Source of the DNA: a virus
Taxonomy: Duplodnaviria; Caudoviricetes
DNA: 43,237 nucleotides
Virus record (IMG/VR): IMGVR_UViG_3300042334_001174
Coordinates: 1 to 43,237 of that record
Direction: 5' to 3' (one strand)
This document shows, one piece after another, positions 1 through 38,800 of the stretch. Both the position numbers and the translations under genes were made by a program. The notes beneath the pieces were generated by a model. That model made no database searches. It saw only the letters and a program-made list of their open reading frames with translations, and had not been told where the DNA came from. Every line of letters begins with the position of its first letter. The stretch's first letter is position 1.

Positions 1-68
1 CTCTCTGCCGCGCTTTCAATCGCTGGATTACCTCTATACCGCAGAATGCAGAATAGGCGAGCCCAGCC

Positions 69-97
69 TTGACGCCGGGCCGGGCTTGGCGTAGGCT
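69..97 (+). promoter_or_regulatory. Putative sigma70-type promoter for the replication operon
   Basis: TTGACG (69-74), 17-bp spacer, TAGGCT (92-97), about 100 nt upstream of the initiator ATG. Confidence 0.5.
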
Positions 98-108
98 TGC
101 CCTGCCGC

Positions 109-197
109 CTGTTCTTCCCAGGCCGTAGCGATAAAACTTTCCCCTCTCTGTGCCAGTCGCCTTCGGGCTTCTGGGGAAGACACAGAGAGGGATTTTT
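109..197 (+). promoter_or_regulatory. Structured leader with alternative hairpins (attenuator-like)
   Basis: CCCTCTCTGTG (142-152) pairs with CACAGAGAGGG (181-191) and is followed by ATTTTT. Segment 109-121 (CTGTTCTTCCCAG) can alternatively pair with 171-185. Confidence 0.45.
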
Positions 198-865
<668 letters not shown>

Positions 866-875
<10 letters not shown>

Positions 876-2263
876 ACGACACGCCCAAGCCCCAGCAGGG
901 CAAGTCTGCCGAAGACATCCTAGCCGAACTTTCAAAGGCTAAGATGCCAAGCGATGCCGAAACAGAGATTGCAGTGCTTTCCTGCGCCATCCAAGCCCCA
1001 GGCTGGGCGGCCAAGCACGCGCCAAACATCCCGATTGGCGCTTTCTCCAAAGACGCTCACCGCCACATCTGGGGGGCTATCTCGTTTCTCCTGATCCAAG
1101 ACACGCCGGTTGATGTCCATACTGTCTGCCACCGTTTGAAGGATATTGGCAAACTTGACCTAGCTGGCGGCTACTCGAATGTAACGGATATTGCCGTTAC
1201 TGTTCTGGGGGCTTACAACGCCGACGCCTACCTCCGCCCCCTGGTGGACATGCACATTCAGCGCCAGCACATCCTAGCCCACGCTCGTAGCCTAGAACTC
1301 CTTCTCCGCACGCAGGTATCCGAGGCCACCGCCCTAGCCGATGCCGTCGAGGCCAACAAGCAGGCCGTCGAGGATGCAGGCAAGGTGTCGGGCCGCAGCC
1401 TCGCCCGGCTCACCATGTCGCAGGCGATTGATGCCACTGTGAACGAGATCAACGAGCGCGTCCAGCGTGGCGGAGCCTTGCCGGGCTGGCCGAGCGGGTT
1501 CCCGTCCATGGATCAGCGCACAGGCGGGCTACAAAAGGGCCGTGTGACCATCTTTGCCGGGCTTCCGAGCGATGGAAAGAGCGCCATTATGCAGAACTGC
1601 GCCCGTAACGCCCTCATGGCCGGAGCTAAAGTTGGCTGGTATTCGCTAGAAATGCCCATTCCTGAGCAGACGTTGCGCATTCTGGCCGAGCAGTCGGGCG
1701 TGGATAACGGCGACCTTTACAGCGGGCTACTATCCCGAGCACAGCAAGATTTGCTAACGCGGGCTGTTCGTGAGTTGCGCGACAAGGGCGCGGTGATGGT
1801 GGATACTGAGAATGCCACCTCCGCCGACATCTTGGCCGATATTGAGCGGTCGGGCTTTGATGTTGCCGTGATTGACTACCTCCAACTTTTGGAGCCCGGC
1901 GACGTTCGCAAGGGGGCGAGCCGTGAAGAGGTGATTTCCAGCATCTCCCGCCGCATTAAGGCCGTAGCAAGGCGGACAGGCTGCCACATCCTAAGCGCCA
2001 GCCAGCTTAACGACCAAGGCCGCCTCCGTGAGAGCCGGGCCATCGGCCAAGATGCTGATAGCGTGTACTTGGTCAACAAGTGCCCCATGGAGCGCAAAGA
2101 CGGCAAAGCCACCGACGCCGACGACCAACTAGAGTTCGACGACACCCGCCGCCTTCTTTGGTGCGAGAAAAACCGTGGAGGCAAACGGCATTGGGAATTG
2201 CCTTTGTGGTTTTTTGGATCTACATTTACCTTTAAAGAAATACAGGCCACTGACAGCATGTAA
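866..2263 (+). CDS. dnaB: Replicative DNA helicase, DnaB family
   Basis: Walker A GLPSDGKS, SLEM, IDYLQL, ASQLN, LRESRAIGQDAD and KNRGG motifs, plus an N-terminal DnaB helical domain. Confidence 0.93.
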
Positions 2264-2281
2264 CCCCAGACATCCGACACC

Positions 2282-2560
2282 ATGACCACCGAAGACGCCC
2301 TCTTTACCCTCCCAGCCAGCCCGCCGCCAGCCCTGGCCCGCCTCCGGGCAGAATACGCCGAGTCCGTGGCGGCATGGCACGCCGCAGACGAGCACGAAGA
2401 CGAAAGTGGGGAGGCTGTGCCCCGTGAGGTCACTCGCCGAATGCACCGCGCCGAATGCTGCCTCCGCGCCGAAGAAGCCCGGCTGGCTGCCCTGGCCGAC
2501 ACTAGCCACTGCGCCGAGCTTGGCGTGGCTTTTGCTGAACTTCCACACGCGCTGCCATGA
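2282..2560 (+). CDS. Hypothetical protein
   Basis: ATG after an A/C-rich leader, ATGA overlap with the next gene. Confidence 0.6.
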   Translation: MTTEDALFTLPASPPPALARLRAEYAESVAAWHAADEHEDESGEAVPREVTRRMHRAECCLRAEEARLAALADTSHCAELGVAFAELPHALP

Positions 2561-2775
2561 CTGCCACCCAAGCCTGCCCCATCGCCCGAGCCGAGGCCAG
2601 CCTAGCCGCCATCTTCGCCGCCTGCCAAGCCTACAAGGCCCGCCACGCCCAGGCCCGGCAGGCCAAGGCCGACGCCCGGCTCGCCCAGGGCGGGCTATGG
2701 TGGCGGAAGGAGGGGAACGAAATAGGTCAGCCACCGCCGCCGGGAGCGAGCGAGGCCGACACGAAAAATCTATGA
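2557..2775 (+). CDS. Hypothetical protein whose C-terminus is encoded in the first attC-like site
   Basis: ATGA overlaps at both ends, reads through AAC 2716-2718 in frame. Confidence 0.6.
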   Translation: MTATQACPIARAEASLAAIFAACQAYKARHAQARQAKADARLAQGGLWWRKEGNEIGQPPPPGASEADTKNL

Positions 2776-2837
2776 GACACAACAGGGCAACGAAACGGAA
2801 ACGCGGGCGGGTGTTGGCTGCACCGCCATTGTTAGGC
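2712..2837 (-). repeat. attC-like site 1
   Basis: GGGGAAC-gaaata-GGTCAGCCA ... TTGGCTG(C)ACC-gccatt-GTTAGGC, with an unpaired C in the right arm. Confidence 0.7.
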
Positions 2838-3029
2838 ACGTTTGGCGAGCAATACGAAGTCAGCCTCGACTACCGGAAGCCGGATGGATACTGGGTGTGC
2901 TCGCACAAAGAACACGTCACCGTGCCGGTGGTGCATGGAGTGAATGAGAAGAAAAACCACGCAGCGGCGGAAGCCATCGCAAAACAACGATACCCAAAAT
3001 GCAGAATCAACAGCGTGACATACTGCTAG
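2772..3029 (+). CDS. Hypothetical cassette protein (cassette A)
   Basis: ATG 2772 lies inside attC 1 with an ATGA overlap, and the stop falls just before attC 2. This is the C-terminal part of ORF-track 2406..3029. Confidence 0.6.
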   Translation: MRHNRATKRKRGRVLAAPPLLGTFGEQYEVSLDYRKPDGYWVCSHKEHVTVPVVHGVNEKKNHAAAEAIAKQRYPKCRINSVTYC

Positions 3030-3030
3030 T

Positions 3031-3129
3031 GCCTAACGACAAGCTGACCCACGGAGGCCCGACTAATGAGCATTGAATCCACAAAAGACGAGCAACGGGA
3101 CTCCGTTGCGGTCCAGCGCCTTGTTCGGC
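3031..3129 (-). repeat. attC-like site 2
   Basis: GCCTAAC-gacaa-GCTGACCCACGGAG ... CTCCGTTGCGGTC(C)AGC-gcctt-GTTCGGC. Confidence 0.8.
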
Positions 3130-3302
3130 AGGTTGAATGCCTGACCGAAGCTGTGGCGTCTCTCGCCTACTGCCTTCAGCGCGGCCCATGCTGGGGGTCA
3201 ACTGGCGAGGTAAACAACGCACTCCAGAAAGCGTGGCGGCTGGTGGAGCAAGCCCGAAGCAATCCGCCGAACGCCAAGGATCACGCGACCGATGGGGCTT
3301 AG
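3066..3302 (+). CDS. Hypothetical cassette protein (cassette B)
   Basis: Starts in the loop of attC 2 and ends inside attC 3. Confidence 0.6.
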   Translation: MSIESTKDEQRDSVAVQRLVRQVECLTEAVASLAYCLQRGPCWGSTGEVNNALQKAWRLVEQARSNPPNAKDHATDGA

Positions 3303-3401
3303 CCACAAATGAATCTCAACCGCCAAACGATATGACCGAAGCTGTAAACCCCGAAGTAAAAGAGCAGGCCCCATCTGGTCGCGTGCATCCTCTTGTTCGC
3401 C
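3266..3401 (-). repeat. attC-like site 3
   Basis: GCCGAAC-gccaa-GGATCACGCGACCGATGGGGC ... GCCCCATC(T)GGTCGCGTG(C)ATCC-tctt-GTTCGCC, a perfect stem with two extrahelical bases. Confidence 0.85.
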
Positions 3402-3724
3402 ATTCGTTGTCGCGCAAGGCTGGATGGCGGATGCCTGCGAATACCGTGAAGGTGTCGCGCCCTGGCAAATGGGGGAATCCGTTTCTCGTCGGGCCGGAAC
3501 GCACGCAAGTCGAGGCAGTGGGAGCGTTCCGAATCTGGCTCACGACTGAGGGCGTGACGGCTGGAATCCACGAACGCAAACAGTGGATGCTCGACCACTT
3601 GCACGAACTGCGCGGGAAAAATCTGGCGTGCTGGTGCAAGGCAGGCACGCCGTGCCATGCCGATGTGCTGCTCGATATGGCGAACGCTAGCCTATCCCAC
3701 GGGGAGGGCGGAAAAAAATCATGA
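3332..3724 (+). CDS. DUF4326 family protein (cassette C)
   Basis: VSRPGKWGNPF, ELRGKNLACWC and PCHADVL motifs. ATG 3332 lies in the loop of attC 3. Confidence 0.85.
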   Translation: MTEAVNPEVKEQAPSGRVHPLVRHSLSRKAGWRMPANTVKVSRPGKWGNPFLVGPERTQVEAVGAFRIWLTTEGVTAGIHERKQWMLDHLHELRGKNLACWCKAGTPCHADVLLDMANASLSHGEGGKKS

Positions 3725-3776
3725 ATACTGAAACGACATCGCCGCCCTCCCCGTTGGGATCAGGCAATTGTTCTCC
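3679..3776 (-). repeat. attC-like site 4
   Basis: GGCGAAC-gcta-GCCTATCCCACGGGGAGGGCGG ... CCGCCCTCCCCG(T)TGGGAT(C)AGGC-aatt-GTTCTCC, a perfect stem with two extrahelical bases. Confidence 0.85.
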
Positions 3777-4419
3777 GTTGCTGGATCTACGGTTGACCGA
3801 CTGTATGGAGTTCCTGCGGGCGACTCCCGACAATGCCTATGACCTCGCCATCGTAGATCCGCCGTATGGACTCGGTGACGTGCTTGTGGCTGGTGGAACG
3901 TGGTCGGTCAAGTATCAGGCCAAGGGCGCGAAATGGGACGTAAAACCAGAGGCGGAATACTTCGAGCAACTCCGTCGCGTGGCGAAAAACTGGATCGTAT
4001 GGGGAGCGAACTACTACTCGGAACACCTCCCGCCAACGCGGGGCTTCGTCGTGTGGCACAAGCCGAACATGGAAGGGATGCACACGATGGCGAACTGTGA
4101 ACTGGCGTGGACGAGCTTCGACAGGAACGCCAAGACGGTATCAATCACGCGGCCAAACGAGGACAGAATCCACGTCTGCCAAAAGCCGGTGAAGCTCTAC
4201 GAATGGCTACTGGCGAACTACGCCAAGCCGGGCGACCGCATCCTCGATACGCACATGGGAAGCGGAAGCATCGCCATCGCCTGCCACTTCAGGGGGCATC
4301 CGCTCACTGCCTGCGAGATCGACCCCGAATACTTCGCCGCCGCAAAAGCCCGCATTGAACGGGAGACGGCGCAACTCACCCTTTTTACGGAGAACAGTAC
4401 GGATCATCCAACGAATTGA
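3721..4419 (+). CDS. DNA N6-adenine/N4-cytosine methyltransferase, beta class (cassette D)
   Basis: Catalytic DPPY precedes HVCQKPVKLY and the SAM-binding ILDTHMGSGS, with ACEID downstream. Confidence 0.92.
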   Translation: MNTETTSPPSPLGSGNCSPLLDLRLTDCMEFLRATPDNAYDLAIVDPPYGLGDVLVAGGTWSVKYQAKGAKWDVKPEAEYFEQLRRVAKNWIVWGANYYSEHLPPTRGFVVWHKPNMEGMHTMANCELAWTSFDRNAKTVSITRPNEDRIHVCQKPVKLYEWLLANYAKPGDRILDTHMGSGSIAIACHFRGHPLTACEIDPEYFAAAKARIERETAQLTLFTENSTDHPTN

Positions 4420-4443
4420 CGACATATCACGCATCCGTATGGT
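4416..4443 (+). promoter_or_regulatory. Possible sigma70 promoter at the end of the cassette array
   Basis: TTGACG-N16-TATGGT, 20 nt before ATG 4463. Confidence 0.3.
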
Positions 4444-4462: not shown

Positions 4463-4702
4463 ATGACTGACCTCACCCTATCCGAACAAGCCTTCTCTGC
4501 CGTAGCCGCCGCCCTAGCCCCGCTCCCGCCCGCCGAGGCCGAGGCCCTGCTAGCCTTCATGTTGGCCTCCGTGGCCGTGAAGTACCGCACCGGCCTCCCC
4601 GCCTCCGGCATCAAGGCCGAGCTGGCCGCCAAGGTGGGCCTCGCCGTGGACGGGCTGGCGGGGCCTGCCCAGGCTTACGATGCCGCGCAGGTGGCGGGCT
4701 AG
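4463..4702 (+). CDS. Hypothetical protein
   Basis: ATG after an A/C-rich leader, Ala/Leu-rich helical sequence, codon style like the phage backbone. Confidence 0.6.
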   Translation: MTDLTLSEQAFSAVAAALAPLPPAEAEALLAFMLASVAVKYRTGLPASGIKAELAAKVGLAVDGLAGPAQAYDAAQVAG

Positions 4703-8845: not shown

Positions 8846-9082
8846 TCAGAGCGCGTAAACCAGCCCGCCAGCCTCTCTGAACGCCTTTGGCTGGCTCCTG
8901 ACCGCCGAGGCCGTGACGGGGAAGCTGTGCCCGGACTTGGCGGCGAGGGCGGCTAGGCTGAGGGGGCCGGAGGCTAGGGCGGCCTTGAGGGCGGCCTTGA
9001 GGGCGGGCGTGATGCTGGGGGCGATGTCGCGGAGGCTGGCGGCATATTGACCGGCGGTGAGGCGTGGGCGGTGGGTGGACAT
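8846..9082 (-). CDS. Small winged-helix-like protein
   Basis: ALASGPLSLAALAAKSG...GGLVYAL resembles the C-terminus of the upstream ORF. Confidence 0.5.
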   Translation of the reverse strand: MSTHRPRLTAGQYAASLRDIAPSITPALKAALKAALASGPLSLAALAAKSGHSFPVTASAVRSQPKAFREAGGLVYAL

Positions 9083-9094
9083 GGCAGGAAGCGG

Positions 9095-9829
9095 TTAACT
9101 GACAAGGAACACCCGCCCGCCGTTCGTGGCGAACTGGCCCGGCAGGCTCTTGGCCGTGGCGCGCACCTGGGCGGGCGTCAGGCCGGTGGCCTTGGCTGCC
9201 TCGGCGATTTTGAGGCCGCGCTGGCTAACGGCGGAGGCTAGGAGGCGGGCAGCCTCGGCTTGGCTGGGCTGGGCCTCGGCGGCCTTGGCTGCTTCGATAC
9301 ATTGACGCTCGCGCTCTTTGTCTTCCTCCTGCTTTGGGGTGAGCGGAGGCATCACGTTGGCGGTGGTGGGGGCGTTGACTGCGCTATAGCTTGTGCTGCC
9401 TGTAGGCACGCCGGAGAATGGCGGGTTGCCGTTGGCGTCGTAGAGCGCGGCTTCGACATCGCCCACAGTGAGCTTGGCCTTGTCGGCAAGGGCCTTCATC
9501 TGGGCCTCCACCTCGGCCAGCGTCTCCACGCTAAATCGTTTCTTCAACTCATGTGCAAGGCAAGCCTCCGCCGTCGGGTGTAGGCTACCGTCCTCGGCCT
9601 CAAAGTCCACGTCTGGCACAGGCCGCATGGGCTGGTAGGCCGCCAAGTACGGCCCGGCTGGCTTGTTCTGGTCGTCCCACTCGGCGCGGGTTAAGATGCG
9701 GACTGGGTAGCCTTTCTTGGGCCTCACGTCTGAGCGGGCGCGTGTGGGCAAGGTCTGGCCGTTGCTGGCGGCGATGGGGAAGGCTTGGCCTGGGTGTTGC
9801 GGGTAGGTGATTTGGAGGTGTGTGATCAT
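9095..9829 (-). CDS. Hypothetical protein with a C-terminal HTH-like domain
   Basis: ATGA overlap with the LexA-like gene, C-terminal GLKIAEAAKATGLTPAQVR. Confidence 0.65.
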   Translation of the reverse strand: MITHLQITYPQHPGQAFPIAASNGQTLPTRARSDVRPKKGYPVRILTRAEWDDQNKPAGPYLAAYQPMRPVPDVDFEAEDGSLHPTAEACLAHELKKRFSVETLAEVEAQMKALADKAKLTVGDVEAALYDANGNPPFSGVPTGSTSYSAVNAPTTANVMPPLTPKQEEDKERERQCIEAAKAAEAQPSQAEAARLLASAVSQRGLKIAEAAKATGLTPAQVRATAKSLPGQFATNGGRVFLVS

Positions 9830-10065
9830 AGTTTGAGAGTGAATCGGTTTTTGGGAAGTGCATTGCCATCATACCCAAGCAGCCCCCGGCGAACGAGCGC
9901 CCAGAAGTGGAACATAGCCGCCGTCTGGCTGGCATGACCGAACTTGGCCTGGATGGCCCGGCTGCTTGGCAGGCGGCCTGTCTCGGCGTGCCTGGCCCGG
10001 CAAAAGGCCAGGATGGCGGCTTGCTTGGCCGTGGCCGGGCGGGTGATGGGGGCTAGGACTGGCAT
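9826..10065 (-). CDS. Stand-alone LexA-type N-terminal DNA-binding domain protein
   Basis: TAKQAAILAFCRARHAETGRLPSSRAIQAKFGHASQTAAMFHFWALVRRGLL follows the LexA wHTH pattern. No peptidase domain. Confidence 0.75.
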   Translation of the reverse strand: MPVLAPITRPATAKQAAILAFCRARHAETGRLPSSRAIQAKFGHASQTAAMFHFWALVRRGLLGYDGNALPKNRFTLKL

Positions 10066-10084
10066 CGGATGTCGTAGGCCAACA

Positions 10085-10119
10085 ATAAGCCCGGCCCGCC
10101 GAAAAGGCAAGGCCGGGCT
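10085..10119 (-). terminator. Putative terminator hairpin after the decoration gene
   Basis: AGCCCGGCC...GGCCGGGCT stem followed by TATT on the minus strand. Confidence 0.45.
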
Positions 10120-10142
10120 GGCTGATTGTTTGGCCGGGCGGC

Positions 10143-10685
10143 TTAGGCGGCGGCTTCGATCTTGGCAAGGTCGCCGTCGGCATCCATGAACCAGCCTTTC
10201 CATGCAGTCGCGGAGACGCATGTGAGGTAGCATGTGGAGTTGGCGGCAATCGCGGACTCTGCGCTAGCGCCTGTGCCGCCGTTGATGGCGATGGTAGCCG
10301 GGTCTGAGCTGCGAAGCTCAAAGCCGGTTGCAGCGACGTTGATTACAAGTTGCTTGCCTACCACGGGGGCGGGCAAGATAACGATGTCGTTGGCACCTGC
10401 GCTGGTGACAGTGACGTGGCTGGAGGCTGCCGCAATGGCGACACCGCCTGCGGTTGCTGTGACGGCTTCCACCACATCGGAACGCGGGCCGCTGATTGTG
10501 CCTGCGTTGACGAGGGCATTCACGCCGCTGAAAAACTGAGCCAAGGTCATGTCGGCACAGATCCGAGGATCGCCGGATGGCTTGGACGAGTCGTAAACAA
10601 AGACGCGGTGATTGGTGGACAGGCTGGAGCCCAGAAGGGCTGGCAGGTCCGCCGGATTCGTTGGAATGGGAGTGATCTGGAGCAT
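10143..10685 (-). CDS. Putative capsid decoration/cement protein
   Basis: Directly after the major capsid gene, small beta-rich domain (VILPAPVVGKQLVINV). Confidence 0.55.
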   Translation of the reverse strand: MLQITPIPTNPADLPALLGSSLSTNHRVFVYDSSKPSGDPRICADMTLAQFFSGVNALVNAGTISGPRSDVVEAVTATAGGVAIAAASSHVTVTSAGANDIVILPAPVVGKQLVINVAATGFELRSSDPATIAINGGTGASAESAIAANSTCYLTCVSATAWKGWFMDADGDLAKIEAAA

Positions 10686-23816: not shown

Positions 23817-23834
23817 ATATTGTGTGTAGTTATG
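23817..23834 (-). promoter_or_regulatory. Conserved upstream motif CATAACTACACACAATAT (copy 3)
   Basis: Exact 18-mer match to 13317-13334, 3 nt before the portal ATG. Confidence 0.7.
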
Positions 23835-26800
23835 GCGTGGCTGTGGCTTTGTGCAAGCCCATTGCGTGGGCCTGTGCCCTGGCGGCGGCCATGGCGTCTT
23901 CGCGGGCCTTCTTGAACGCCTTAATTAAGCTCTCGCCCGGCGCTGCCTTCTCGCTTGGCATGGCCTTGGCTGCCACCTTGGCGGCATTGGCGGCATAAAG
24001 GCGGCCTGCCAGTTCGGCAAACTGGCGTTTCTTGGCCGGATCTATGATGGGCACGGGCTTGGCCTTGCCGGGAGGGTCGGCGTTGTAGTCGTCCCGTTGG
24101 AGCGGTTGCGGGCTCCAGCGTTTCGTTGGGTGTAGGCGGTTGGCGCGGTAGAGAAGTGCGTCGGGCTGGGGTGTGACTTTGGTGTTGGCCTGGAATAGCA
24201 GGCGGGCAGGCGGCGTGAAGGCTTTGGGCAGGCGCTCGCCGGTTGTGCTGATTTTGGGCTGGGCGGCGAAGACTGGCAGTTTGGGGGCAATGGTGGGGTT
24301 TGGCAGGGCGGCATAGCCTGGGCCTGCCGTTGTGCGCTCGCGGAGCACGTCGTCCATGTTGCGGAGCGGCTGCTTGATGAGATTGGGAATCACGTTGTTC
24401 ATCAGCATTTTTACCCCGGCGCTTTGGTCGGGATTCTCGCGCTTCTCTTCCACGTCGCGGACAAACTGCATGGCGTTGGCGAAGCCTTGCAGGAATGATT
24501 TATCCTCCAGTGACGAGACGAGGCTGGACAGCATGTAGGTGGAGTAGCTGGCGTTTTCGCCCTGTGACTTGAGGCGTTTGACCTCCTGATAGTTGCGGTA
24601 GGCGTCGATCCACGTTGTCAGGAGCGTGGCAGCGGGCTCGTAGCGGCCAAAGGGCAGGCTGCCAAGCACCTTGCCTTTGCCGTCCTGCCAGACAATGGAG
24701 TTTTCCCCGCCGTATTTGCGCAAGAACTGATCTGTGGCGGCCCGCTCCTTGAGGGAGTGCGAGCGGGTGCCGACAAGTAGCACAGGCTTTTCGTCGTCGT
24801 TGTCGTCACCTTCCAGCATGGAGGCCAAGGCCAGCCAGCCAAGCCCGGCAAGCAGCGTCTCGGAGGCGTCTTTGATCTGCATGGCCTTCGGGTAGGATTT
24901 AATCACGGGCACGCCTTTCTTGCCCATTGCCAGCCAGCCAGCCCGCGTGAGGCCGTAGAGCAGGCTGATAGCCGAGCCGCCAGCCTTTTTGATGCCGGTG
25001 CGCACGATGTTGGTGGGGGTGCGTTGGAATGGGAAGATCCAGCGCATGAGGCTACCCACGAATTTACGGGAGCGGATGCGTTTTTGGAGCTTGGCGGCAA
25101 GGTCTGAGTCGCCCTTGGCCTCGGCCTCAGCGAGTAGCTTTTCCAAGTCTTTGATGCCTTTATAGCCGCCTAGCACGGTGTCCACGATCTCGGTTGCGGA
25201 GTTGTCGTCTTGGAACAGGAGTTCCTCGGCGGTTTTCATCACCTCCCCCCACACGGCGCTGGATGTGTCGTTGAGGGTGTTGGCAATCTCGGTGTCGATG
25301 AAGGCGGCCCGCGCCTGCCCTTTCAGGCCTTGGCGCTTGGCCTCCACATGGGCCCGGCGGTAGGCCACGGCAGATGCCTCGGCATACATGATGGCCGTCT
25401 TGAAGAAGGCGTCTGTGAAGCGGAGCACACGGCCCGGCAGGCGGCTGATTCGGCCTGCCTGCCCGCCCACGCTGGCGCGGATGTTACCCACCTTGTCGAG
25501 GTCGCCGTCCACCACGTCGATTTCAAGCGGCTGGCCGAGGTATTTGTGGCGTATGGTGTCGCCTTCGGTGAGGAAGGTTTCGCGGGCCATCTCAAAGGCT
25601 GGGCCGATGCCCTGCCAGAAGCCTTTTAAAATGTGCTTGAACTCGCGGAACTGCGCGGAGTTCGGGTCTTGGTAGGCAAGGTTCAGTGTTGCCTCGGCGA
25701 GGCGCTGGCCGGTGTAGTGCCATGCCACCTGCGCGGCGTTGCCGGTGATGTTTGCCACCTGGGTCTGCGGGCCTGACAGGAGGGGCCAGTTGATCCAGTA
25801 TTCGTAAACCTTGTCGAAGGCGCTGGCCTTGGCTGCCGTGTATTCGCGGGCGAAGGCGTAGTAGTTCGCCATGTCGTCGGGGTCGAATGGCACAAACACG
25901 CGGACCTTTTGGCCGTTTGGCGTGTTGATGACTTTGGACATTAGCTTGCGGGAGTTGCGAGCCTTGGCGGATTGCAGGGCATAGCCCATCACGCGGTTTA
26001 CCTCTGCCGTCACTTGGTCGAGAGTTTGTTTTTTGCCTTTGATGAGTGTCCGCCAGTCTTCCAAAGGCCTAATCTTTGGCGGCAGCCCCAGCCCCACGGC
26101 CTTCTTGAGCCTGGCAAAGCCAGCCTTGATGAGGCCTCCAAAGCCTGTGCCCGCCTTGACCTGGGCGGCCACGGCGGGGCGGATGATGGCGGCGGTGGCG
26201 TCGTGGATGAACTTGCCTACGTCGTCTTGGTTGAGGTTGAGATAGTTTGCAATGTGCTCGTCGGAGAAGCCTCGGAAGGCGAGGCGCATGATGTTGTAGC
26301 CGTCGTTGTCTTTGCCTTTGTAGGCGTCGAGGCCTTCTTTGACGGCAGGGAGGTCGAGGATGGCGGATTGCAGGGCTACGCGGTCGGTGCCGGAGAGCAT
26401 AAGGTCGTCTTCGGTGACTCCCATGTTCTTGAGCACGGCTTGCTTGATCTTCTCGCTCTCGGCGTCGTCCTTCTCCAGCAACTCCTCTTTCGTCTCCTGG
26501 GCGCGGGCCGTCTTTAGCGCGGCCTCCACGTCTGCCCGGCGGCTGCCCCGTGCCTCGGCTAGCTCGGCCTCCAGGCTGGCGATGCGGCGGGCCTTGCCTG
26601 CCTGGGTGGGCAGGATGCGGAGCTTACGGCGGACGGCCTCGCTTGGGCCAAACACGATGTCGAGGGCTTTGGTCCAGCGTTCCTGCGGGCTTTCCAACGG
26701 GTCACGGCGGGCGCTCATGGCCTGGGCTAGGCGGGTGCCGGTGTCCAGGTAGTAGTTGCCTACCTTGTTGAGGAGGGCGCGGATATTCTTGTCGCCAGTG

Positions 26801-29800
26801 AGGCGGGCCTCGCGGGTGAGGAACTGGAACGCCTGCCCAAGTACGGCCTGCTCGTCCACGTCGAGGAGCTTGCTTTCTTCGGCCATGTCGGCGGCCCACT
26901 GCACGTACTTCTCGGGGTCGCTCTCGAACGTCTTCTTGGCCCATTCGCGGAGCTTGTCGAGTTGCACGGTTTCCGGCCCGCCTAGCTGGTCGCGGGCGGC
27001 TGTCAAAGCCTGATACACGGCGCGGGCTTCGGGATACTCGAACTGTTTGGACAGGTTGCGCGCCGACATCTTGCCACTTGCCTGCACGGCGTCGATGGCG
27101 TCGGGGTCGTTGCGTAGCGCCTCCCTGGCGGCGGCCTCCTCCTCGGCTAGGCGTTGCTGCTCTGCCATGAAGGCGGCCAAGTCTGGGTCGGCCTCTTCGT
27201 CGGCCTCGGGCTGGCTGGCCTCTTGGCTGGCTGCCGGGCCGCCTTCGGGGGCGGGCGGGTTGCGGAGGATGGATTGGCTGGCGGGGTTGAAGCGTTCGGA
27301 GAGAGGGATGACTTGGCCGGACTCGTCGCTGGAGGTGTTTGTCCAGCGTTCCATGACTGCCTGAATGCTTTCCCGGAGTTCAAAGCGAGCCTTGGAGCGT
27401 TCACGCGAGGTGTCTTCGTCCAGGTTGCGGGCGTTCTTCAGTCGGTCGTCGTAGTCGGTGTAGTTGTGGCGGGCGTAGGCTTGGGCGACAAGGAAGGTGT
27501 CCGTGTTGTCTGTGTTGCGCGTTTTGGCGATGTCGATGGCTTCCTCGCGGGTCATGCCGGGGAAGTCGCGCTGTAGTTTTTCGACAAAGGACGGCTGGGC
27601 TAAAATCTCCAGCTTGGGAATATCGTCCCAATCTCCAAAGCGATCTTTGCCGCGTGTGGTGTCCCCGGTGTAGTAAACGAGCCTCTTGTCTTCGGACGAC
27701 TCTTTGACATACATTTTGACCGCATCGTGCAAGGATAGGGTCACTTGTTCTTCGTCCATCCAGCCTGATTCTCCATCGTTGGTTTCGACGGCGTAATATG
27801 GCTGCTCTGCATCCCAGGTATCGCGGTCTTTGGAATCTACAGTTGGAACTTGCCACCATGATCCGGGCGCTTCTTCCCAGATGTCTGAGATGTTGCGCGG
27901 CACATTTCCCCATGAGGCATCTTGGTAAACGGTCAGTTCTTTGTCGAGATGGGCATTATAACCATTGTCCGAATCTTCGACATCTTCAGCTAAAAAGGTT
28001 TTGTCTCTAATAGAGATTTCCCACTTTTTGCCAGCAAACTCTACGGTGATCGGGGATTGGTCGGCATCAAAGTCGGCGACTGGACGAGGATCAATCTCCT
28101 CGTCGTATTTTTTTAACAAACGCTGATATAGGGTCTCGGTGTCGGTGGCATCCCGCCCCGCCGTGACGGCCTGCCCGGCGGGCGGCAGGGCTAGGCTGGC
28201 GGGCTGGCCTTCGTCGGCGGGCTTGGTAATTGTCACCATCTGAGTACGCACGCCTGTCTGGCGGAAGGCGTCGGAGCCTGCGAAGCTGCCCTCTGGCATG
28301 GCCTCATGGCTGCCGCCTACGCTGTCCAGCCACTCACGGAAGGCCGTAGCCTGCTTGTCTTGGCGGTAGAATGGCCCGGCGGACATGATGGCGACGAGCT
28401 TGCCGCCCGGTTTCAGGAACTTATAGGCGTGCCGGATGTGCTCCATATCCTGCCCGTTCTCAAAGGGCGGGTTCATCACCACGGCATCATATTTTGGCTC
28501 TGGCTCTACGCTGGTAAAGTCGTTGTCGATGACGTTGACGCCTTTAGCGGTGAGGATGTCGCGGAGGCGGTTGGAAAGCTCGATAGCGTCCACCTCGGCC
28601 CCAGCCTCCTGCATTGCCTCGGCAATGTCGCCTTTGCCTGCGCTTGGCTCCAGTACCTTCATGCCGGGCTCAATGCCTGCTATACCCACCATCTCGTCAA
28701 TGACGGCGCGGGGGGTGGGGAAGAAGCCGGGTAGCTTCATGCCGACTAGCTCGCGCTCCATCTTTTTGATGGGGTCTTCTTTGGCTGCTTGGCCTCGGTA
28801 TTGCAGGAACTCGCGCAGGGCAGCCCGCAGGCTTGGCAGGTTGGTCAGGCCCATGGCCTTGAGGCGGTCGTACGTCTCGTACTTCCACTTGATCGTGTCC
28901 CAGACGGGCTTGCCGCGCTCGGTGACTTTCTGGGCGAGTTCCTTCACATCGTCCATTTCGGAGTCGGAGCGCAGGGTTACGGCTTGCCCTTCGTTCTCGT
29001 TCATGCGGATCTTTGCCACGCGCTCGGCCAGCAGCTTCGCGCCGGGCGTTTCACGGCCTTTCTCTACCAATCGCAGTATATCGCCTTTGTCGAGGTATGG
29101 GTATGGAATGCGGGTGGCATCCATCATCTCCGCCGTCGGGCCTCCTGCCTCGGTCTTTTCGCGGTCCATCATGCCCATCTTGCGGTCACGAATCCAATAC
29201 GTCATAGCTCCACGCGCCATACCGTCCAGTGTCTCCACATGCGTTCCCATCCGCACGCCGTCTAGGTGCGTGGCCTCGCCTGATTCCATGGCGGCGGCTA
29301 GGTTGCGCATCGTCTGGGCCATGGCTTTCATCCCTCGGGCCGTGGCTTCTTGCCCGGCGGCCTCGCGGGCACGCTTGGCGGTGTTGGTCTTGCGGTCGGC
29401 GTTCAGGATGCCATCAGCCTTGCCATCCAGAACCTCAGCCACGGCGGTCAGGCGGCTGGCGGTGGCGGACTTCTTGGCCTCCTGGCGTTCCTGAATCTGC
29501 TCTTTCTGGTCCACTGTCTCGCCTTTGGATACGGCAATGAAGTTCTCGGCGGCGGCTCGGGTGGTGAACTGGAAGCCGGGCACGGCTCCGCCCTTGGCGT
29601 AGGACGAGTAGTAGCCGCCGAGTTTCTTGGAGGCGGCGTTGAGGCTGTCGTAAACGGGGCGCTCCACACGTTCGGAGAGCTTCACCACAAAGAGGTCGTG
29701 GCCTTTCTGTGTGTGCTTTGTTTCGATGATGTCGGCCTCTACGCCGGATGCCACGCCATAAACGCGGGCCTTGGCCTCTGTGCGGGCCTGCTCTTGGGCC

Positions 29801-32800
29801 TTGCGGTCGATGCCACGCACGGCGTCGTAGGCGGCTAGTTGCTCGGGAGTGAGCACGGACTCGCCTTTCTTGCGCACGGCATCATTACGGGCCTGTGAGC
29901 TTTTGAGCTTCAGAACTTCCTTCACTTCTGCCTCGCTCATGGCTTTGCGGCCTGTGCTCCACACAAAGCGGTCCCATTCCTCGGGCGTTTCCGGGTTGGT
30001 GAGTGCCTTCTCTTTGGCTGCCTTGCTGGCCTCGGCAGCCTCGCGGCGGGCCTTGGCTTGCTCCACAATCATTTCGTCGGTCCACTTGGCTACTTTCTCG
30101 TCCATCGCGGCGTCTTTGTTGGCTTGGAAATCGCCACCATAAGAGTAGGAAATGGAATCGTCAGGATTGAAGTACAGATCCAGTGTGCTTAGCACGCTTT
30201 CAGCAATCGAAGCCTTGCCGTCTGACTTGCGGGCGCTCATGCCTGCCATGGGCAAAAGCTCGTCCACTTTCATCTTGTTGAGGTCGGCCAAGATGGCGGG
30301 GCGCTGGGCTTTGAGTTGAGCCCATGCCGTGCGGACCTGCTCGGCGGTCACTTCGCCTTTGCGGAGCTGGGCAATGAAGGCGCGGGCGCTGTCAAAGCCT
30401 GTTATAGGCTTCACCTGCCCGCCCTGCCCTTCGGGGGCTGGCGCTTGGGCAGGCTGGGCCGCCTCTTGGCCCGGCTGGGCTGCGGCCTGTTTGGCGGCGT
30501 TGATAGCCTCCCATGAGGTAGGGTCGTTCTCGCGGTCCCATTTGGAAACAGCCTCATCCACCAATTTATCGGCTATGGCTCCAAGCGCCCTTTCGTGGGC
30601 GTTTTGTTGCTGTTCCCACTCGGACAGTTGGGAGTATCCTTTTTCGGTCAATTTGGCCTCTTTGGTTTTTGTCACCCATCCTGCACGGATGCCTACGGCC
30701 AAGCGGGCGGGCGTGAGCTTGTCTGGTTTGTAAGGTTTGCGGTTTGCACGATCACGCAAGGCTTGCAGGGTTTCTAGGTCGTCTGGGGCTGGTGGTGGAA
30801 GGGACGGATCTTTGCCGGCAAAGACACGGGCGGCCTCGGCTGCCTCTTCTCTGGTCTGGCCCGGCTGGGCGGGCGGCTCGGCTGCCGGGCTGGCAGAGGC
30901 TAGGCGGCGTTGATTCTCCTGGGCGAGGGCAAGTGCTCGGGCCTTGGTGGCTGGGCTGGCGTAGGGCTTGAGGGCAAGCGGGCCAAGGCGTAGAAGCTCG
31001 CGGCCAAGCTCTTCCTCGGTGAGGTCGGCAACGGGGTTGCTGGTGGCGTGGTATTCGGTGATAAACTTAGCGAATGCGTCCTCGCTGGCCTTGACGCCTG
31101 CCGGGAGTTTTTGGCGTGTCCATGCCTCCCAGATGGCTCGGGAGCGTTTGTTGTCAGGGTGTAGTAGGTTAGTCCATTCGCCGGTTTCGATAGCCTCCAT
31201 CATCTTTTCGCCATTCTTGACGGCCACATCCTCTGGAATGCTATAGTCGCGGTAAAACTGTGCAAACCTCTCCGCCGTTGGCTTGAACGGCTCTTGCGGC
31301 GGCAGGGTGAACTTTTCGGCCTTCTTCTTCTCGGGCCGTACTTGGCCTGCCATGTTCATAGGCCGGGGCTTGGCCGCCTTTGGCGCTGCCGGGCTGGCCT
31401 CTGCCGTGACAGGCGGGGCCGGGCGGGCGGTAGAGTAGGCTGGCGCTCCGTTCACGCGCATAGGCATAAGCACAAACAGGGCCTTGCCTGCCCGCAGGGT
31501 GGCGGGGCTTACGTCGTCGCCAATGCGTAGCTCAATCTGCTCGTTGCCAAGGTTGCGGGCTACGCGCAGGACGGTCTGGAAGTAGTCGGGGCTGTAGGCG
31601 GCGAGAATTTTGGCCTCGGGCTGGATGTTGTGGGCGTAGTCGCCTCGGTTGATGTCGCTAGCGAATAGGCCAAGGCTGCCGTCTGGGTTGCGGTAGAGGG
31701 AGACGGCTTTGGAGGCTGTGCTACTTTCATTTGGCAGTTCTTTGATAATAGCTCGGGCTTGGCTCATCAGGCTGAACCAGCGGGCGGTGTCGAGGGTGTA
31801 GGGCGTGAAGGCTTTGTCATCGGGGATGATTGCCTCCATCGTTGGATTTTGTTCACCTTCGGGCCATGGCTGCGCATTACCTTTTTCGTCATAGACGATA
31901 GCCTCTTGGCCTTTACCTCCGCCATTTTCATGCTCTACACGCACAGCAAAGCGGCCATTGGTTGCCCAAAGGTAAGCGCCTTCACCTTTTACTTTTTGCA
32001 AACCTTCGCCGCGTGTCGTGTCCGTGGACACCATCGGGAACACCGCCGCCACCACGTCCGCCGTGGTCTTGGCCTTCTTGAGGGCTGGCACCGCTGTAGG
32101 GGCCTGGGCCGTGGGCTTGGCTGGCAGGTCGTCCTTGGCCTGCGAGACGGGGAACTTATCGGCCTTCTTCTGGAAGCGGTAGAGGGCTTCTTTCTCGTTC
32201 AGGATGGTGAACGTACCGTCGCCGGGCACTTCAATGGTGACGTAGCCAATCAGGCGCTCGGCATCTGCCTTGGCGGCGGCTAGTTCGCTTGCATACGTCT
32301 TGCGCTCCTCTTCGTTGAGGCTGTCCCAATTACGAAACTTGTCCTCAAGGTTGGTAATCGCGTCCTTCTGTTCCTGTGTCATGTCCGCCCGCTTTGGCGC
32401 GGCCTTCACGGCGGCAGCCACCTCGGCTAGTAGGAACTTCTTCTGCCCCTTGGCGGCGGCGGCATCGAACGGCGCGGCCTGCTTGGCTGGCTCAGGCATG
32501 GCGGCCTCTTCGGCTACGGCCTCGGCCTGGGCTGGCGTTACGGAGGCTGGGAGGGCCGGGACTTCTTCGGCAGTCTCTTCCTCTTTGATAAGCATTTGAC
32601 TGTCGCCAAACGGAACGCCATTCAAAACCTGCTGGTCTGTGAGCTTGTTGACGCTGTAAAGCCCATAGAGTGAATCGCCGATTTTGAACAATCCTGGCAG
32701 AACCTTCGTTACGGGCGCATTGCCTCCATAGTAGGCGCGGAACCACTTACTCACCATTTCAGCAGTGACGGGGACGTTTGCCTCTGCGGTGGTAGGCGCT

Positions 32801-35800
32801 TCTGGCGAGGTTGCTGGCGGCATTGTCGCCTTGAGGCGTGCAATCAACTGAGGGGCTAAACTTTTGGCGGTGCCTTTGTAGTTCGGGTTAGCCAATAGGT
32901 CGATCAAGTAGCCTTTGGCGTCGTCGGATGCGGTTCCTGCCTTGAGGTCTTTGAGGGCTGCTGCTCGGCTGCCGTCTGAGTTCTCCGAGGCAAAGAATCT
33001 ACTCAAGTCCGCCCAAAGCGTCTGGTCGGCCTTGGCAGCCACGGGGGCTGGGCTGGCCTGATACACGGCCTGCCAGTCGGGCTTTTCTTCCAGTGTGGAG
33101 TCAAAGCCGGTCATCAGCCGCCAAAAGGCCCGGCTGTATTGCCGGAGCTGCCCGCCTGGGGCTAGCTTGTCGAGGCGGGCGGCTAGCTCGGCTGGCGTCT
33201 TCACGCCTGCGTCAACCAGCACAGAGGCCGCCTTCATCATGGCGTCTCGGCGGTCGCGTGGTAGGTCGGTTTGCTCTAGGCTGCCCTGCGGGGGAAGTCG
33301 GAGGCTTGCTTGATTGCTTCCTGTAGAATCAAGTCCTCCACTTCCTCCTGATCTTTGATTTTGGATACCTGTTGGAACAACCGATCCAATTCGGTCGTTG
33401 AGGGTTCCGCGTTTGTTGAGTTCTCGGAGGTAAGAGTCATAAGATTCTGGGGTGTTGCCTGCTTTTCGGATGGATGCCGCCCACATAGCGGCTTGAACTT
33501 GTCTTGGCTGCCAGCCTAGCACGTTTGCTATCTGTGTTAACACTTGCTGGCCTTTTTGAAACTGTTTTGCTGTTGGTGAATCAACGCCAAAAAGCATCCT
33601 TGAGATATGCCGATCGACAACAACGACCTCGTCGGCTCCGGTGTTGGCCTGTTGGTATGCTGCAATCTTTTGGCCTTGGACCTGGGCGGCGTCTTTGACC
33701 CGTTGCAGGTTTTTAATCACCGCAGGCAAATAGCCTTCAAAGGGTGCGCCTGTTTTGAGTTGGACATACGCTTTCAGGGCCAGCCCTACGTTTGCCTTAA
33801 CTGAGGCCGCTTGGGAGGTGACAGAAAGGATTCTTTGGAAAAGGTCTGCATCGACACCAAAAAACTCGGTGAGCGTGTCTTCGTGGCGCTGATACCAGTC
33901 TTTCCAGTCAGAAGAGTCTTCGGTAGCTTTAATCAACTGGGCCCTTGTCTGTTTCAGACGCAGCCCGCTAGGCGGCAGAAACAGGCCGGTGAAGGCCTCG
34001 GCAAGTGCCTTGTCGGCTTCATCGGTCTGGCTGGCCTGGGCTGGCTTTGCCTGCGGGGCGGGCTGGGCCTCGTTCTGCGCGTAAGCGGCTTTGAGTTTGG
34101 CGCTCGCAGTATCTAGGTCCGCTTGTCTGGACGCCTTCTCTTGCGCGTATTCTTTCCGCAGTTTGTCAACCTTGTCGGCGCTTTTCCCGCCCCCCACACT
34201 TGGGTACTGCAAACTTTCTAGGCGTTTACGCGCATTACGCTCGGCCTCCTCAAGAGGTCGCGTGTTAATTAGCCCGGCAGCCTCCGGCCCGGCCTGTATC
34301 TCCAGCCCGGCCTTGGCGGCCATGTCGGCCACGATGGCCTGCACGGCGTCTGCCTCGGCCTCAATGCGGGCGGCTTGGGCCTTGTCGGTGACAAGTTTGG
34401 CGATGTCGCGGAGCTGGGCCACGAAGTCGCGGAGCAGGGCAAGCAGGCGGTCGCGGAAGGCCGGGTCTTGGCTGGCCTCGATCTCGGCTTGGTTGCTGAT
34501 CTTGCCGCGAAGACGGGCTTCGACTAGCTGGGCAAACCATTCATGGGCTGCGGCAAACTCCTTGTCATCCTGCCAGAAGTCGGTAAGGCCACTGTCGGAG
34601 AGGTAGAGGGCCTTGCTGGCGGCCTTGGCCTCGGGGGTGAGAAGGTTGTAAAGGCCAATGATCTTGGCTCCATCCATGTTACCGATGGCGGCCTTGTGGA
34701 TGAACTCATGCAGAATGAACGTGTCCATGCCTTCGCGGGCGGCCTCGGTGGTGGCGTGCTTGGCGGTGAGGCGGTCAATGAGCTTTTCAGGGTTGATGAA
34801 GAGGATGCTGCCCTTTCTGCCCACTGGCTTGACTTCCAACTCTCCGCTCTTTTCGCGCAGTTCTTTGGCGTAAACGTCATAGTCCACGGCCCCTGTCATG
34901 GCCTTGAGCCTAGCCCGCAGGCGCTTGGCAAGGTCGAGCTTGCGGCCTGCCAAATCCTTGGCGGCCTTGTCTGGCCTGCCGACGAGGCTTTGGCGGACGG
35001 TGGCCTCATACTCGGCTAGGACGGCCTCTGCCCGGCCCTCTGGCGTGGCTGGGCGGGGCGGCTGGGCGGGCTGGCTATCAAATCCAGGGAATCCACCTTT
35101 AACCGCCTCTTTTGTGGCAGCGTCTTCGGTGGATTTCACAAGAATTTTTGCCGCATCTTCCGCTGAGTATGAGCCTTGCCCGTTGGCGAGATACAACCAC
35201 CCGTCAGAGCCGATGGATTCAATCTTGAAGACTGGGCCTTTCCCGTTAGCGCGGACAAAATCGCCCACTTTGAACGCCTCCGCCTGCCCGGCTGGCTGGG
35301 CGGGCTGGGCCTTGGCTTGGCTGGCTTTGGTGGCCTCGTATTCCTCCACAGTGTCTCTAAGTTCCCAAGCCATTACACCCCAGCGAAATTCAAATGTGTC
35401 ACGCCCTGGCGATATTGTTACCTTCTCTCCTGTTTCTGGATCTGTTTTTTCGACGCGCTTAAACTCGCCTGATTTTGTAATCAGCCCTTCTTTTTTGAGT
35501 TCACGGACTATCTCGGCACCACGTTTATTCCTTGTGGCGATCTCAATAATCTCCTTGTCCGTATATTTGTTCTGCAAATAACTAAATACGCCATCTTCAA
35601 GGCTGGTGGCCTCCGCCTGCCCGGCTAGCTGGCTGGCTGGGGCCGGGCTGGGGGCGGGGCGGTAAACGTAGAGGTCGCCTTCGCGGGTGTAGCCCTCGGG
35701 GAGGGCGATGCCGTAGGCGTCCACGGCGGCAGCGTTGACGGGGCTATTTGCTTTGGTGGCATCTGCGAGAATGCGCTTGTGGAAACTTGCCACCAATGCC

Positions 35801-38800
35801 TGCCCGGCTGCCGTCTGGCTTCCGATTCTCTTTGTTGGCAGTTCCTTTTTTGCTATCGCGATTATCTCGGTGCCTATGCCGCGCCGCTGGTATGCGGGCT
35901 CCACTACAAACGCTTTACCGTCGCCATACCCCACGTTTTTTTCGCCGTCGAAAGCGTGGACTCCACCGTATTGATCTGTGAGGAAGTCGATACCGTTTAC
36001 GGACGAGACTTGTGTTTTGTTTTTGCGCGTCTCATTGAATTGGTGGTCTGCAAAGTAGTCGGCAGGCAGTCCACGGTCTTCATTTTCATCAAAGTGATTG
36101 TTTCTCCACTCCTCCGGCGTCATCTGCTCAGGCGGCTTGGCGGCAGGCGCAGGCTGGCTGGCCTCTTCCTGCCCGGCCTGGGCGGGTTGGCGGAGTTTAT
36201 TTAATTGCCGCAGGAGCACCTGTTTATCTGGATATGGATGCCCAAGCCCGCGTGTCAAATCAGCGTGAAGATCGTTTAGTTCGTTTTTATCCATGCCGAG
36301 AAGATCGGCATCGCTAAGTGATTGCAGCCTTTGCTCTGCTTCTGTCTGTCTTGCAACTTTCGCGTCTCTCGACTGTTGGGCTAATTCCCCTAGTTGAATA
36401 GATTGATTCGTTACGCGCCTAAATTCTTTAGCCTCCTCGGTCTGGCCGCCTTGGGGGCGGGCTTGTGTCTGGGCTGGCTCTGGCCTGGCCTCGACTGGCG
36501 CGGCCTTGGCTTGGCTGGCGATGAACTCGGCCAGTGTGGGCGGCGTGAATGCCTCGCCTACTGCCACGGCCTTGGCCTGCTCGCGGACGGCGGCGGTGTA
36601 ATATGTGAGGATAGAGCGCAATTCTGCCTCTGGAATGCCCATCTTGGCAGACACGCGGGCGAGTTTGTTCTTGGCGGCTTCCCTCTCAGCGGCCATCTGT
36701 TGATCGGATAGGTTGCGGCCTGACATGGCTTTACCCATCTTGGCGGCGTAGTCGTAGGCGTCGGCGTCTGTATCGCTTTGGAAGTTGGCGTATGAGCTTC
36801 CACCCTTCGCACCTTTGCCGAATGCCCGGCGGGCGCTTGGCGGCGATTGCTTGGGCTTCTTGGCGGCCCTGGCCTTCTGCTCGGGCGTGGCGCGGGCCTC
36901 TTGGGCGGGGCTTAGGCCGGTTGGCGAAGCTGCTGGTGCAGGGGTGGAGCTCGTAATGAATCTTTCAGCGACCTTGAATGTCCTGCCGCCTTGAGTGAGC
37001 GCGGGGTGTTTCCACTCGCCATCCTCGTAAACAGGATCTCCTGTAATGGTAATATCGCCCTCACTGCGGTACACGTCAGATTTGATGATTGCACCTTTCC
37101 CAAGTTGCTTGGCGGGGGCGGGCTCCGCCGTAGGTGCTGGCGTGTCGTTGGCAGCATCAGCCTCGGCGGCGGCCTTTGCAAAGGCGCTGGATGTGCGAGC
37201 GGGAGCGGCTGGCGCGGGTGTCGGGGTGGTTGCAGGCGAAAGAGTTGAACTTTCGTTTTCTGATAATGAGTCAGATGTCTTAACCTCTGGACCAGCCTGC
37301 GGTGTGGATTCTGCCTTGGCAGGCGCGGCCTGTCCAGCCTTTTTCTTGGCGGGCTGGTTGAGTTGGCGTGCCACTTCGTCGGCTTTGCTGTAAAGCTCTA
37401 CGATGATGTCGGGACGCAGTTTGTGGACCTCTCTGCGGATAGCCTCAAGTTGTCCAGCGTTGGCGTCATTGACAAGAATGGCGCTCACGGATGCCATATC
37501 TTTGATGCCTTTCCCCTTTTTGGATTCTGCGGCTGATTGCACCAAAATAAAGGGGCCATCTCTATAAGAGGTTCCTCCACCAGTCGTGCCAGCCATCGCT
37601 GCTGCTGATCCCTTTCCTACTGTAAGAGGAGCCACATCGAGCCCCCCTGGCTCTACACTGCCACGCTTGCCGCGAGTGGGATCTACATTGTTTTGCAGCA
37701 GCCCCATAAGAGCGTCGAACGCTCCTGATAGGGTGCCATACTTCGCCATTCCGTGTGTGGCAAGGTTTTCACCTCCTACACTGTGAGCACGCTCAAAGGC
37801 GGCGTTCACATCTTCGTTTGCCATGCCTTCTTCAAACCACTCGTCTGTGGCTCTGCGGCGAACCTTGCCTTTTTCTGTCCAATCCCAATCTTCGATTTCG
37901 GACGGCCTCGCTTTCTTGGTTGGCGATGCGGCTGGCTTGGCCTTGGCGGCGGCCTCTTCGGCGTCGATCTGGGCCTTTCGCTCGGCCTCGGTGAGGTTGA
38001 CCAAGCCCGCCAAGCCTTCCTGGGCCTCGTCTGTCAGCCACTCGGCGGCGGCGTTGCGGAGGACTGGCTTGTCTTTATAGAGGTAAACGAGGGGTGTTAC
38101 TTTGGTGTCTGGCGTAGGCTTGCCGCCCTTGTTGATGAATCCAAGCGCCTCCTGCTCCTCAATGTCGAGGCTTTCGAGACTCTGGCCCTGGGCGATCTTG
38201 ACCACGCCTGCGGCGGCCTGCCTAGCCACGGCGGCAGGCGGGCGGCCTGTGCGCTTGGCGGTGGCAGCCACGGATTGCGGGAGGGGAGTAGCGCCTGTGG
38301 GGTTGAACTTGGCGATTTGATTGGCAATCGCTTTAGATATTGCAGTTGGCGCAGTCAGCCCAGCCTCGGCGGCGGCGGCGACATCTTGCGGTCTAGGCCG
38401 AATAGGGGCAACTAATCCCGCTTGTGCAGCGGCTTCTATCGGATTGGGTCGTTTAGGAGCGACCAAACCAGCTACAGTAGCGGCTTCTATCGGATCTTGT
38501 TCTGTAAGCGTCTCGGGCGCTGGCGTCGGAGCCGGGCCAGCCTCGCGGGGCTGAACTGGCATAGGCGCCGGGCCTTCTTCCGGGTTTGGCGCCATGCCAG
38601 GGCCTTCGGTGCCTGCTTGGCGGCGGGCCTGCATGAGCGCGCCTGCACCGCCCATGAGGGCTGTGACGCCTGCCAGTTCGGGTAAGGTGTTGGCGAAGTT
38701 TTTGAAGGTGGCGACGGGATCGGCAGAGGCTGCGGACTCTTGGAGGACAGTGGTAAAGTATTCGTCGGCGATTTCTTCGGGCAATTCTTCGGCAGCCCCT

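Follow-up and report, generated by a model that had tools for sequence, protein, structure and literature searches.

Reversed integron-type cassettes in a phage replication operon, one of them present or absent exactly at the predicted cut site

A replication operon of a tailed phage carries four reversed integron-type cassettes; near-identical phages have or lack one of them, with AA/C as the exact boundary (the slash marks the cut). The cassettes are therefore mobile in nature. As to the agent of this mobility, we consider it likely that the IntI of the probable host, a member of the Verrucomicrobiaceae, is responsible for their insertion and excision, the probable target being an attI-like site that lies just downstream of the array.

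The window, i.e. the whole stretch of 43,237 nucleotides that was analysed, is a phage contig about 70% complete by the estimate of its own record; the record of a near-identical relative (L001) overlaps both of its ends, which gives a circle of about 62.7 kb. The array is found downstream of a gene for a DUF1376 protein and of the DnaB helicase gene, behind two small ORFs, and the portal and capsid families are encoded on the opposite strand. The features needed for what follows are these:

198-875, + strand: DUF1376 primosomal/replication protein (family match), at the window start
866-2263, + strand: DnaB helicase (family match)
2557-2775, + strand: left-flank ORF, in whose 3' end the array is inserted
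2712-2837, + strand (= bottom strand): attC site 1, cut AA/C at 2717/2718, 52.6 bits with the covariance model
2718-3036, + strand: cassette 1, 319 bp, hairpin body and an 85-aa gene (2772-3029) with no assigned function
3031-3129, + strand: attC site 2, cut at 3036/3037, 38.9 bits
3037-3271, + strand: cassette 2, 235 bp, with a 78-aa gene (3066-3302) that ends inside hairpin 3
3266-3401, + strand: attC site 3, cut at 3271/3272, 36 bits
3272-3684, + strand: cassette 3, 413 bp, with a DUF4326 gene (3332-3724), PF14216
3679-3776, + strand: attC site 4, cut at 3684/3685, 39.5 bits
3685-4394, + strand: cassette 4, 710 bp, with an N6/N4 DNA methyltransferase gene (3721-4419), PF01555
4393-4462, + strand: terminal site with no partner hairpin, cut at 4394/4395, its first 12 nt resembling attI
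4416-4443, + strand: sigma-70-like promoter motif, pointing away from the array
4463-4702, + strand: right-flank ORF, directly behind the left-flank ORF in array-less relatives

Elsewhere in the window, we observe tandem AACCAG repeats within the replication gene (552-611), which are probably origin repeats, and an ORF of 5812 aa on the - strand (23830-41268), inside which Rfam matches a tRNA on the same strand (37230-37301, 52 bits). A small protein encoded at 9829-10233 on the - strand matches the LexA DNA-binding domain (27.8 bits), and could bear on the SOS control of the host integrase.

Four hairpins of one architecture had been predicted at this place, and all of them are there, with AAC boxes at 2716, 3035, 3270 and 3683, GTT boxes at 2831, 3123, 3395 and 3770, an unpaired C placed 9, 9, 8 and 8 nt before GTT in hairpins 1 to 4, and an unpaired T further in. 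They thus display what characterizes attC sites: AAC and GTT boxes, an unpaired central spacer, paired L boxes and extrahelical bases on the bottom strand. The pairing from one site to the next, also put forward in the original prediction, holds as well. Each GTT box mismatches its own AAC box, with which it pairs over 3, 3, 5 and 4 nt, and complements the AAC box of the next site over 9, 7, 9 and 9 nt, a pairing equalled by only 0-0.5% of the other AAC positions of the + strand (398 in total). The hairpins had on the other hand been taken for unrelated in sequence, and this has to be corrected: all four belong to a single attC family, within which they have diverged, hairpin 2 being 73% like a site of another phage (L042) and the core of hairpin 4 being 88% like one in L155.

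The four sites score 13.2 to 20.4 with our structural detector, whose background, estimated on 20 block-wise shuffles, is 0.3 matches per 43 kb at a score of at least 13. Hairpins 2, 3 and 4 fold better than shuffled sequences (z = -2.6, -4.0 and -5.7 respectively); hairpin 1 as a whole is not more stable than its shuffles (z 0.25), and its arms give the top model score. A covariance model of attC, which had been proposed as a check, was trained solely on sites from Verrucomicrobiaceae chromosomal integrons (27 host attC sites, whose arms pair in 94% of the cells, with many two-sided changes). This model recovers exactly the four hairpins, on the + strand, with E-values from 1e-10 to 8e-7 (a rough calibration), the sole further match having an E-value of 0.28. 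A search of the array against Rfam gave no match.

The bottom strand of attCaadA7 presents AAC, a spacer beginning with G, paired arms, and an extrahelical T and G in the 3' arm, according to the supplement of PMC9892861 and the accessible text of PMC2727003. The + strand of the window has the same layout, but the first extrahelical base is C instead of G, a change that the latter text (PMC2727003) describes as tolerated; for TJE1_attC2, the detector assigns the published bottom strand correctly. Since the + strand has the layout of a bottom strand, the genes are encoded on the bottom strand, the cut falls at AA/C, and a cassette consists of a hairpin and of the gene behind it. This layout is the reverse of that of a canonical cassette; the reversal, like the gene starts in the loops and the resemblance of the right end to attI, went unnoticed in the original prediction. 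The opposite polarity, with the crossover at the GTT end and each hairpin belonging to the upstream gene, was considered and rejected because the unit missing in L001 is made of hairpin 4 and the gene behind it. With four attC sites in 1.1 kb and no match to PF00589, the array belongs to the CALINs; it is not a complete integron, having no intI beside it, and its cassettes are not canonical ones, all four genes being on the bottom strand and starting in their own hairpin.

The boundaries first proposed for the cassettes stand, and give the lengths listed above. The genes begin in the loop and take their last codons and their stop from the next site, so that the gain or loss of a cassette leaves no open-ended frame. 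Thus the upstream ORF continues into attC site 1, where its stop codon and the start codon of gene 1 overlap (ATGA, 2772-2775); gene 2 starts at 3066, in the loop of hairpin 2; in site 3, a leader of eight codons (3309-3335) overlaps the start of gene 3 at 3332; and in site 4 genes 3 and 4 overlap, stop with start (ATGA, 3721-3724). More generally, the gene start is found inside the hairpin in 29 of 36 viral cassettes. The AAC at the end of cassette 3 is the conserved Asn codon of the DUF4326 family, and in all of the 20 viral genes that read through a cassette end AAC is an in-frame Asn codon, for a background of 57-65% (p about 1e-5 to 2e-4 if the cassettes were independent, which not all of them are).

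For genes 1 and 2, the family search in the protein atlas returned nothing, the best feature scores (0.80 and 0.83) being within chance, and cassette 1 has no viral relatives beyond four near-identical contigs. The homologs of gene 1, compared as proteins only, have short N-termini without the leader derived from the hairpin, and at least two different leaders also occur. Between 2200 and 5000 we found one promoter-like motif for 0.5 expected, which is the chance level; this sole motif, at 4416-4443, does not correspond to a Pc promoter, since its direction is away from the array and the genes are read towards the terminal site. The positions 4416-4435 share two short motifs, maybe by chance, with the stretch that separates attI from intI in several hosts (positions 9080-9100 of the host sequence L353).

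Natural variants were sought among 48 helicase loci, seven of which are close to the window. One of them (L003) matches it. Three others (L001, L002 and L007) are 100% identical to it over 3-3685 and are devoid of exactly 3685-4394, i.e. of the 710 bp of cassette 4, so that the mobility of the cassettes and their boundaries at AA/C, both predicted, are now seen in near-identical phages. At the joint of the forms lacking cassette 4 there are 4 shared nt, which include AA/C and within which the exact base is ambiguous. The 710-bp skip was found in six of eight lake metagenomes, and contigs bearing the left junction of the cassette in four of them, both being present in two; these figures come from assembled contigs of 8 of the 24 listed runs, all lake metagenomes and possibly of one campaign. 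An assembly artefact was rejected, the two forms occurring in separate contigs and runs. The variants are compatible with a gain as well as with a loss of cassette 4.

Related phages had also been expected to differ in cassette content, and they do: the same slot, between homologous flanks, has four fillings, namely the four cassettes, three of them, a single different methyltransferase cassette (L357, L360 and L364, which are identical), and one other cassette between the same borders (L004). The homology of L357, L360 and L364 to the window ends at 2720 and restarts at 4393; among differently filled relatives it is lost at most 3 nt from the left AAC and is recovered at the AAC on the right. 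Other cassettes stand before the same terminal site, with other neighbours, in L358 and L363, and two relatives (L005 and L006) have neither cassettes nor terminal site. The left-flank protein has 26 homologs, of which about half share the native tail and 8 carry different tails right after the Asn at the cut position of the window; L418 represents the native state, with the two flank genes overlapping.

Could these variants arise without any site-specific event? The array might be an inert relic, whose forms differ because phages recombine with one another by homology or microhomology. Up to 4633 the sequence is the same whether or not cassette 4 is present; beyond it the two forms are about 88% alike, and this divergence downstream of 4634 indicates that the lineages recombined near the array; besides, the conserved flanks could allow the exchange of whole arrays. 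Nevertheless the joint shares just 4 nt and these are on the predicted cut, the homology breaks and restarts at the two AACs, and the tails of the left-flank protein switch precisely after the Asn, so that we hold the relic to be very improbable and retain cassettes that move at their attC sites. Certainly, not all gene turnover in the operon uses such sites: L004 (1850-2430) and L005 (3406-4005) have, behind the helicase, a gene for a protein of about 199 aa that the window lacks and that no hairpin borders.

The right-hand end of the array appears attI-like, in that it resembles the attI sites of the host family. Of 23 host integron regions, 11 gave a readable attI site, the other 12 having no attC, an attC end or a weak match. 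On a 12-nt profile drawn from these 11 sites, the terminal site ranks second among 1066 AAC positions, and the four attC sites rank from 214 to 1036; its rank drops to 5 and 10 with profiles of 16 and 20 nt. None of the 11 host attI sites has a G after AAC, versus 35 of 36 viral attC sites. The gene placed before the terminal site receives from it a near-identical tail of eight residues and its stop, in the window as in L001, L357 and L004. Lastly, it is the adjoining cassette that varies, different ones directly abutting the terminal site in six arrangements, as would be expected for an entry at attI.

The likeness to host attI is however limited to about 12 nt, and the GATCA part of it is shared with the left arms of attC. 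The host IntI might then move the cassettes without any dedicated entry point, the terminal site being an eroded attC half or a chance attG, and the array growing by attC x attG and attC x attC recombination. In this direction, the arrays of two related phages (L035 and L041) end in short attC sites that also have an A after AAC, so that the terminal site of the window could be an eroded attC; arrays are found at several places in related phages; and insertion at GWT sites, with excision outside the insertion point, is reported in the accessible text of 10.1101/2022.09.11.507474. At the opposite, the terminal site is kept, 77-94% identical over about 62 nt, in phages where its neighbours are different, it folds no better than shuffled sequences (z -0.56), it scores 6.8 with the 12-nt attI profile versus -3.9 with that of attC, and six arrangements place different cassettes against it. 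An array without entry point is for these reasons an unlikely explanation, though the least unlikely of those we weighed against an attI-like entry site.

The empty form that had been predicted, a direct join of 2717 to 4395, did not appear among the 10 viral contigs that have the terminal motif, nor in the metagenome collection; relatives without cassettes also lack the terminal site. The 28-nt terminal motif had no match in the metagenome collection. A shorter motif had 11, which we treated as chance matches: no attC is found upstream of them at the distance of a cassette, and they have no conserved continuation.

The original prediction attributed the integrase to the host or to a region outside the window. 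A search for PF00589 at E 0.1 found no match in the window or in 10 related viral records, mostly fragments (two are at least 90% complete), and 38 ORFs of about 90 aa or more, picked from the part of the circle outside the window as read from a related contig, gave no site-specific recombinase family. As this contig spans the rest of the circle and no tyrosine recombinase was found, the enzyme of the host is the better reading; the first option is reinforced, since intI is present in genomes of the host family, and the second is not. A recombinase other than IntI, coming from the phage, a co-infecting phage or the host, might also be invoked, all the more that most viral records searched are fragments. 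It is, to our mind, quite improbable, in view of these two negative searches and of the hairpins, which belong to an attC family found beside IntI; we thus keep to the host IntI.

The Verrucomicrobiaceae are the likely host family, as judged by the attC family only. A degenerate hairpin pattern, scanned over GTDB genomes (19 of 64 parts covered), matched mainly in Verrucomicrobiaceae and their relatives, and it is in genomes of this family that the attC family of the window adjoins a full IntI; of 121 genomes of the family, 46 have an IntI match above the cut-off. The helicase of the window had no match at E 1e-95 in 145 genomes of the host family, a search which had no positive control and shows little. 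The DNA of the array matched 4 of these 145 genomes. In one of them (L425, 1148-1600) an inverted cassette, with a loop start and a hairpin 76% like hairpin 1, lies at an attI beside an intact intI, whose product scores 387 bits for a cut-off of 265. In another (L423, 1500-1632) a host attI directly abuts the 3' end of a methyltransferase gene that is 76% similar to cassette 4; this junction is at the contig end and no intI is seen behind it. Both genomes, like the other host genomes, are metagenome bins. They are the best signs that the host IntI may handle cassettes of the phage type. Besides, in a canonical host array, the loop of an attC (L390, 1921-2010) resembles the start region of hairpin 4 of the window, which hints at a traffic of hairpins between phage and host.

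The inverted orientation prevails on the phage side. Applied to 35 phage loci, the attC model made from host sites only identifies 26 sites, without exception on the + strand of the loci. When orientation is assigned crudely, from the longest ORF, inverted genes are found in 32 of 35 viral cassettes, and 93 of the 110 host cassettes have the canonical layout; one viral exception to the inversion is a double count. We considered that replication might set the orientation, by placing the bottom strand on the lagging template (as the available part of PMC5371416 presents it), and discarded this in favour of gene direction, because the strand is the same in arrays that lie 3 kb upstream of the helicase. 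About ten inverted cassettes, two of them with nearly the same hairpin, are found behind the helicase of the complete 40-kb phage L042 (7470-10900), and five viral contigs reached through their cargo genes (L103, L105, L116, L136 and L157) also bear inverted cassettes, some with an extrahelical G.

A mechanism can be proposed from these elements. During infection the coding strand would fold when single-stranded, and the host IntI would recombine the terminal site, in double-stranded form, with the attC carried by an incoming circle. The inserted gene would then be read from the early-operon transcript coming from upstream, and the cassette nearest to the terminal site, here that of the methyltransferase, likely an anti-restriction gene, would be the newest. 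An integrase acting on phage sites is on record: of six phage attC sites that Qi et al. assayed, IntI1 recombines five (PMC9892861, available text).

How the cassettes themselves are formed is suggested by gene families that occur with and without hairpins, and with different hairpins. In the DUF4326 homologs devoid of hairpin, a conserved motif ends in Asn. It is at the codon of this Asn that the cassette ends in the window, L137 and L138, and different hairpins are joined at different N-terminal points; the window and L155 have the gene-side junction in common and not the hairpin body. This pattern fits a repeated capture of ordinary phage genes as cassettes. A cassette would be born when a hairpin of host type is joined in front of an ordinary phage gene, with a cut at an in-frame Asn codon near the gene end, and when the sequence following the GTT box is changed so as to pair with the cassette end. 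We may then venture a wider proposal, which seems to us possible but falls somewhat short of an even chance: that phages run their own non-autonomous integron, an attI plus cassettes fitted to the operon, on the host IntI, and also make new cassettes from ordinary phage genes. If this is true, the birth of cassettes would be visible in nature and testable, and the integrons of phages and hosts would form a single, two-way gene pool.

Integrons are regarded as devices of bacteria, and anti-phage genes are now known to be stored in them; if a phage adds and drops methyltransferases and other genes by means of the host IntI, the same enzyme would serve both sides. Gene families found with and without hairpins moreover provide material on how cassettes first arise, a step called largely unknown in the accessible text of PMC5371416.

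Compared with known systems, the array is closest in content to the 17 phage CALINs with methyltransferase cargo described by Qi et al. in 2023 (PMC9892861): as far as the available text of that study goes, these phages also have several attC sites between small genes, no intI and a DNA methyltransferase as cargo, and the use of a bacterial IntI is proposed for them too. It differs from one of these, TJE1, which is canonical with genes on the top strand (same source), by genes on the bottom strand, starts in hairpins and borrowed ends, and from the set as presented there by its natural gain or loss at the cut and by its attI-like end. On the orientation of P12002L, the accessible text mentions only "divergent directions" (PMC9892861); in our analysis P12002L_attC1 lies on the coding strand and is therefore inverted. 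It is the tested site that failed with IntI1 (PMC9892861), and as the sole tested site that we find inverted, it counts against our main explanation. In the same Polaribacter phage P12002L (L366, 29200-31320) we note sites on the coding strand and one gene that apparently starts inside a longer inverted repeat.

The chromosomal integrons of Verrucomicrobiaceae (L350, L351, L353, L391 and L398) share with the window the attC family and its geometry, a GTT box that pairs with the cassette's own end, and a similar core at the array end. Unlike those of the phage, the host cassettes are mostly canonical (93 of 110) and longer (median 628 versus 363 bp), and the host has an intI beside attI whereas the phage has none. 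The insertion at attG and the SALINs described by Loot et al. (10.1101/2022.09.11.507474) explain how a cassette may come to sit in a gene remote from any integron, and how it may leave by an excision that does not fall on the insertion point; however, attG is there, in the part of the text available, a GWT consensus only, whereas the window has a conserved end site that is reused and cassette genes of the phage type.

In the literature searched, with a coverage outside of which most subscription journals fall, we found no inverted, loop-initiated phage cassettes and no phage attI used by a host IntI. Published clusters of attC in phages, as far as the accessible texts go, are documented by single genomes and by assays with IntI1; in the present case a natural population shows cassette gain or loss at the exact cut. 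Phage attC clusters were thus already known, and what is new, within that literature, is the inverted layout anchored at an attI-like site. Judged by its sequence, the array works like an integron without its enzyme.
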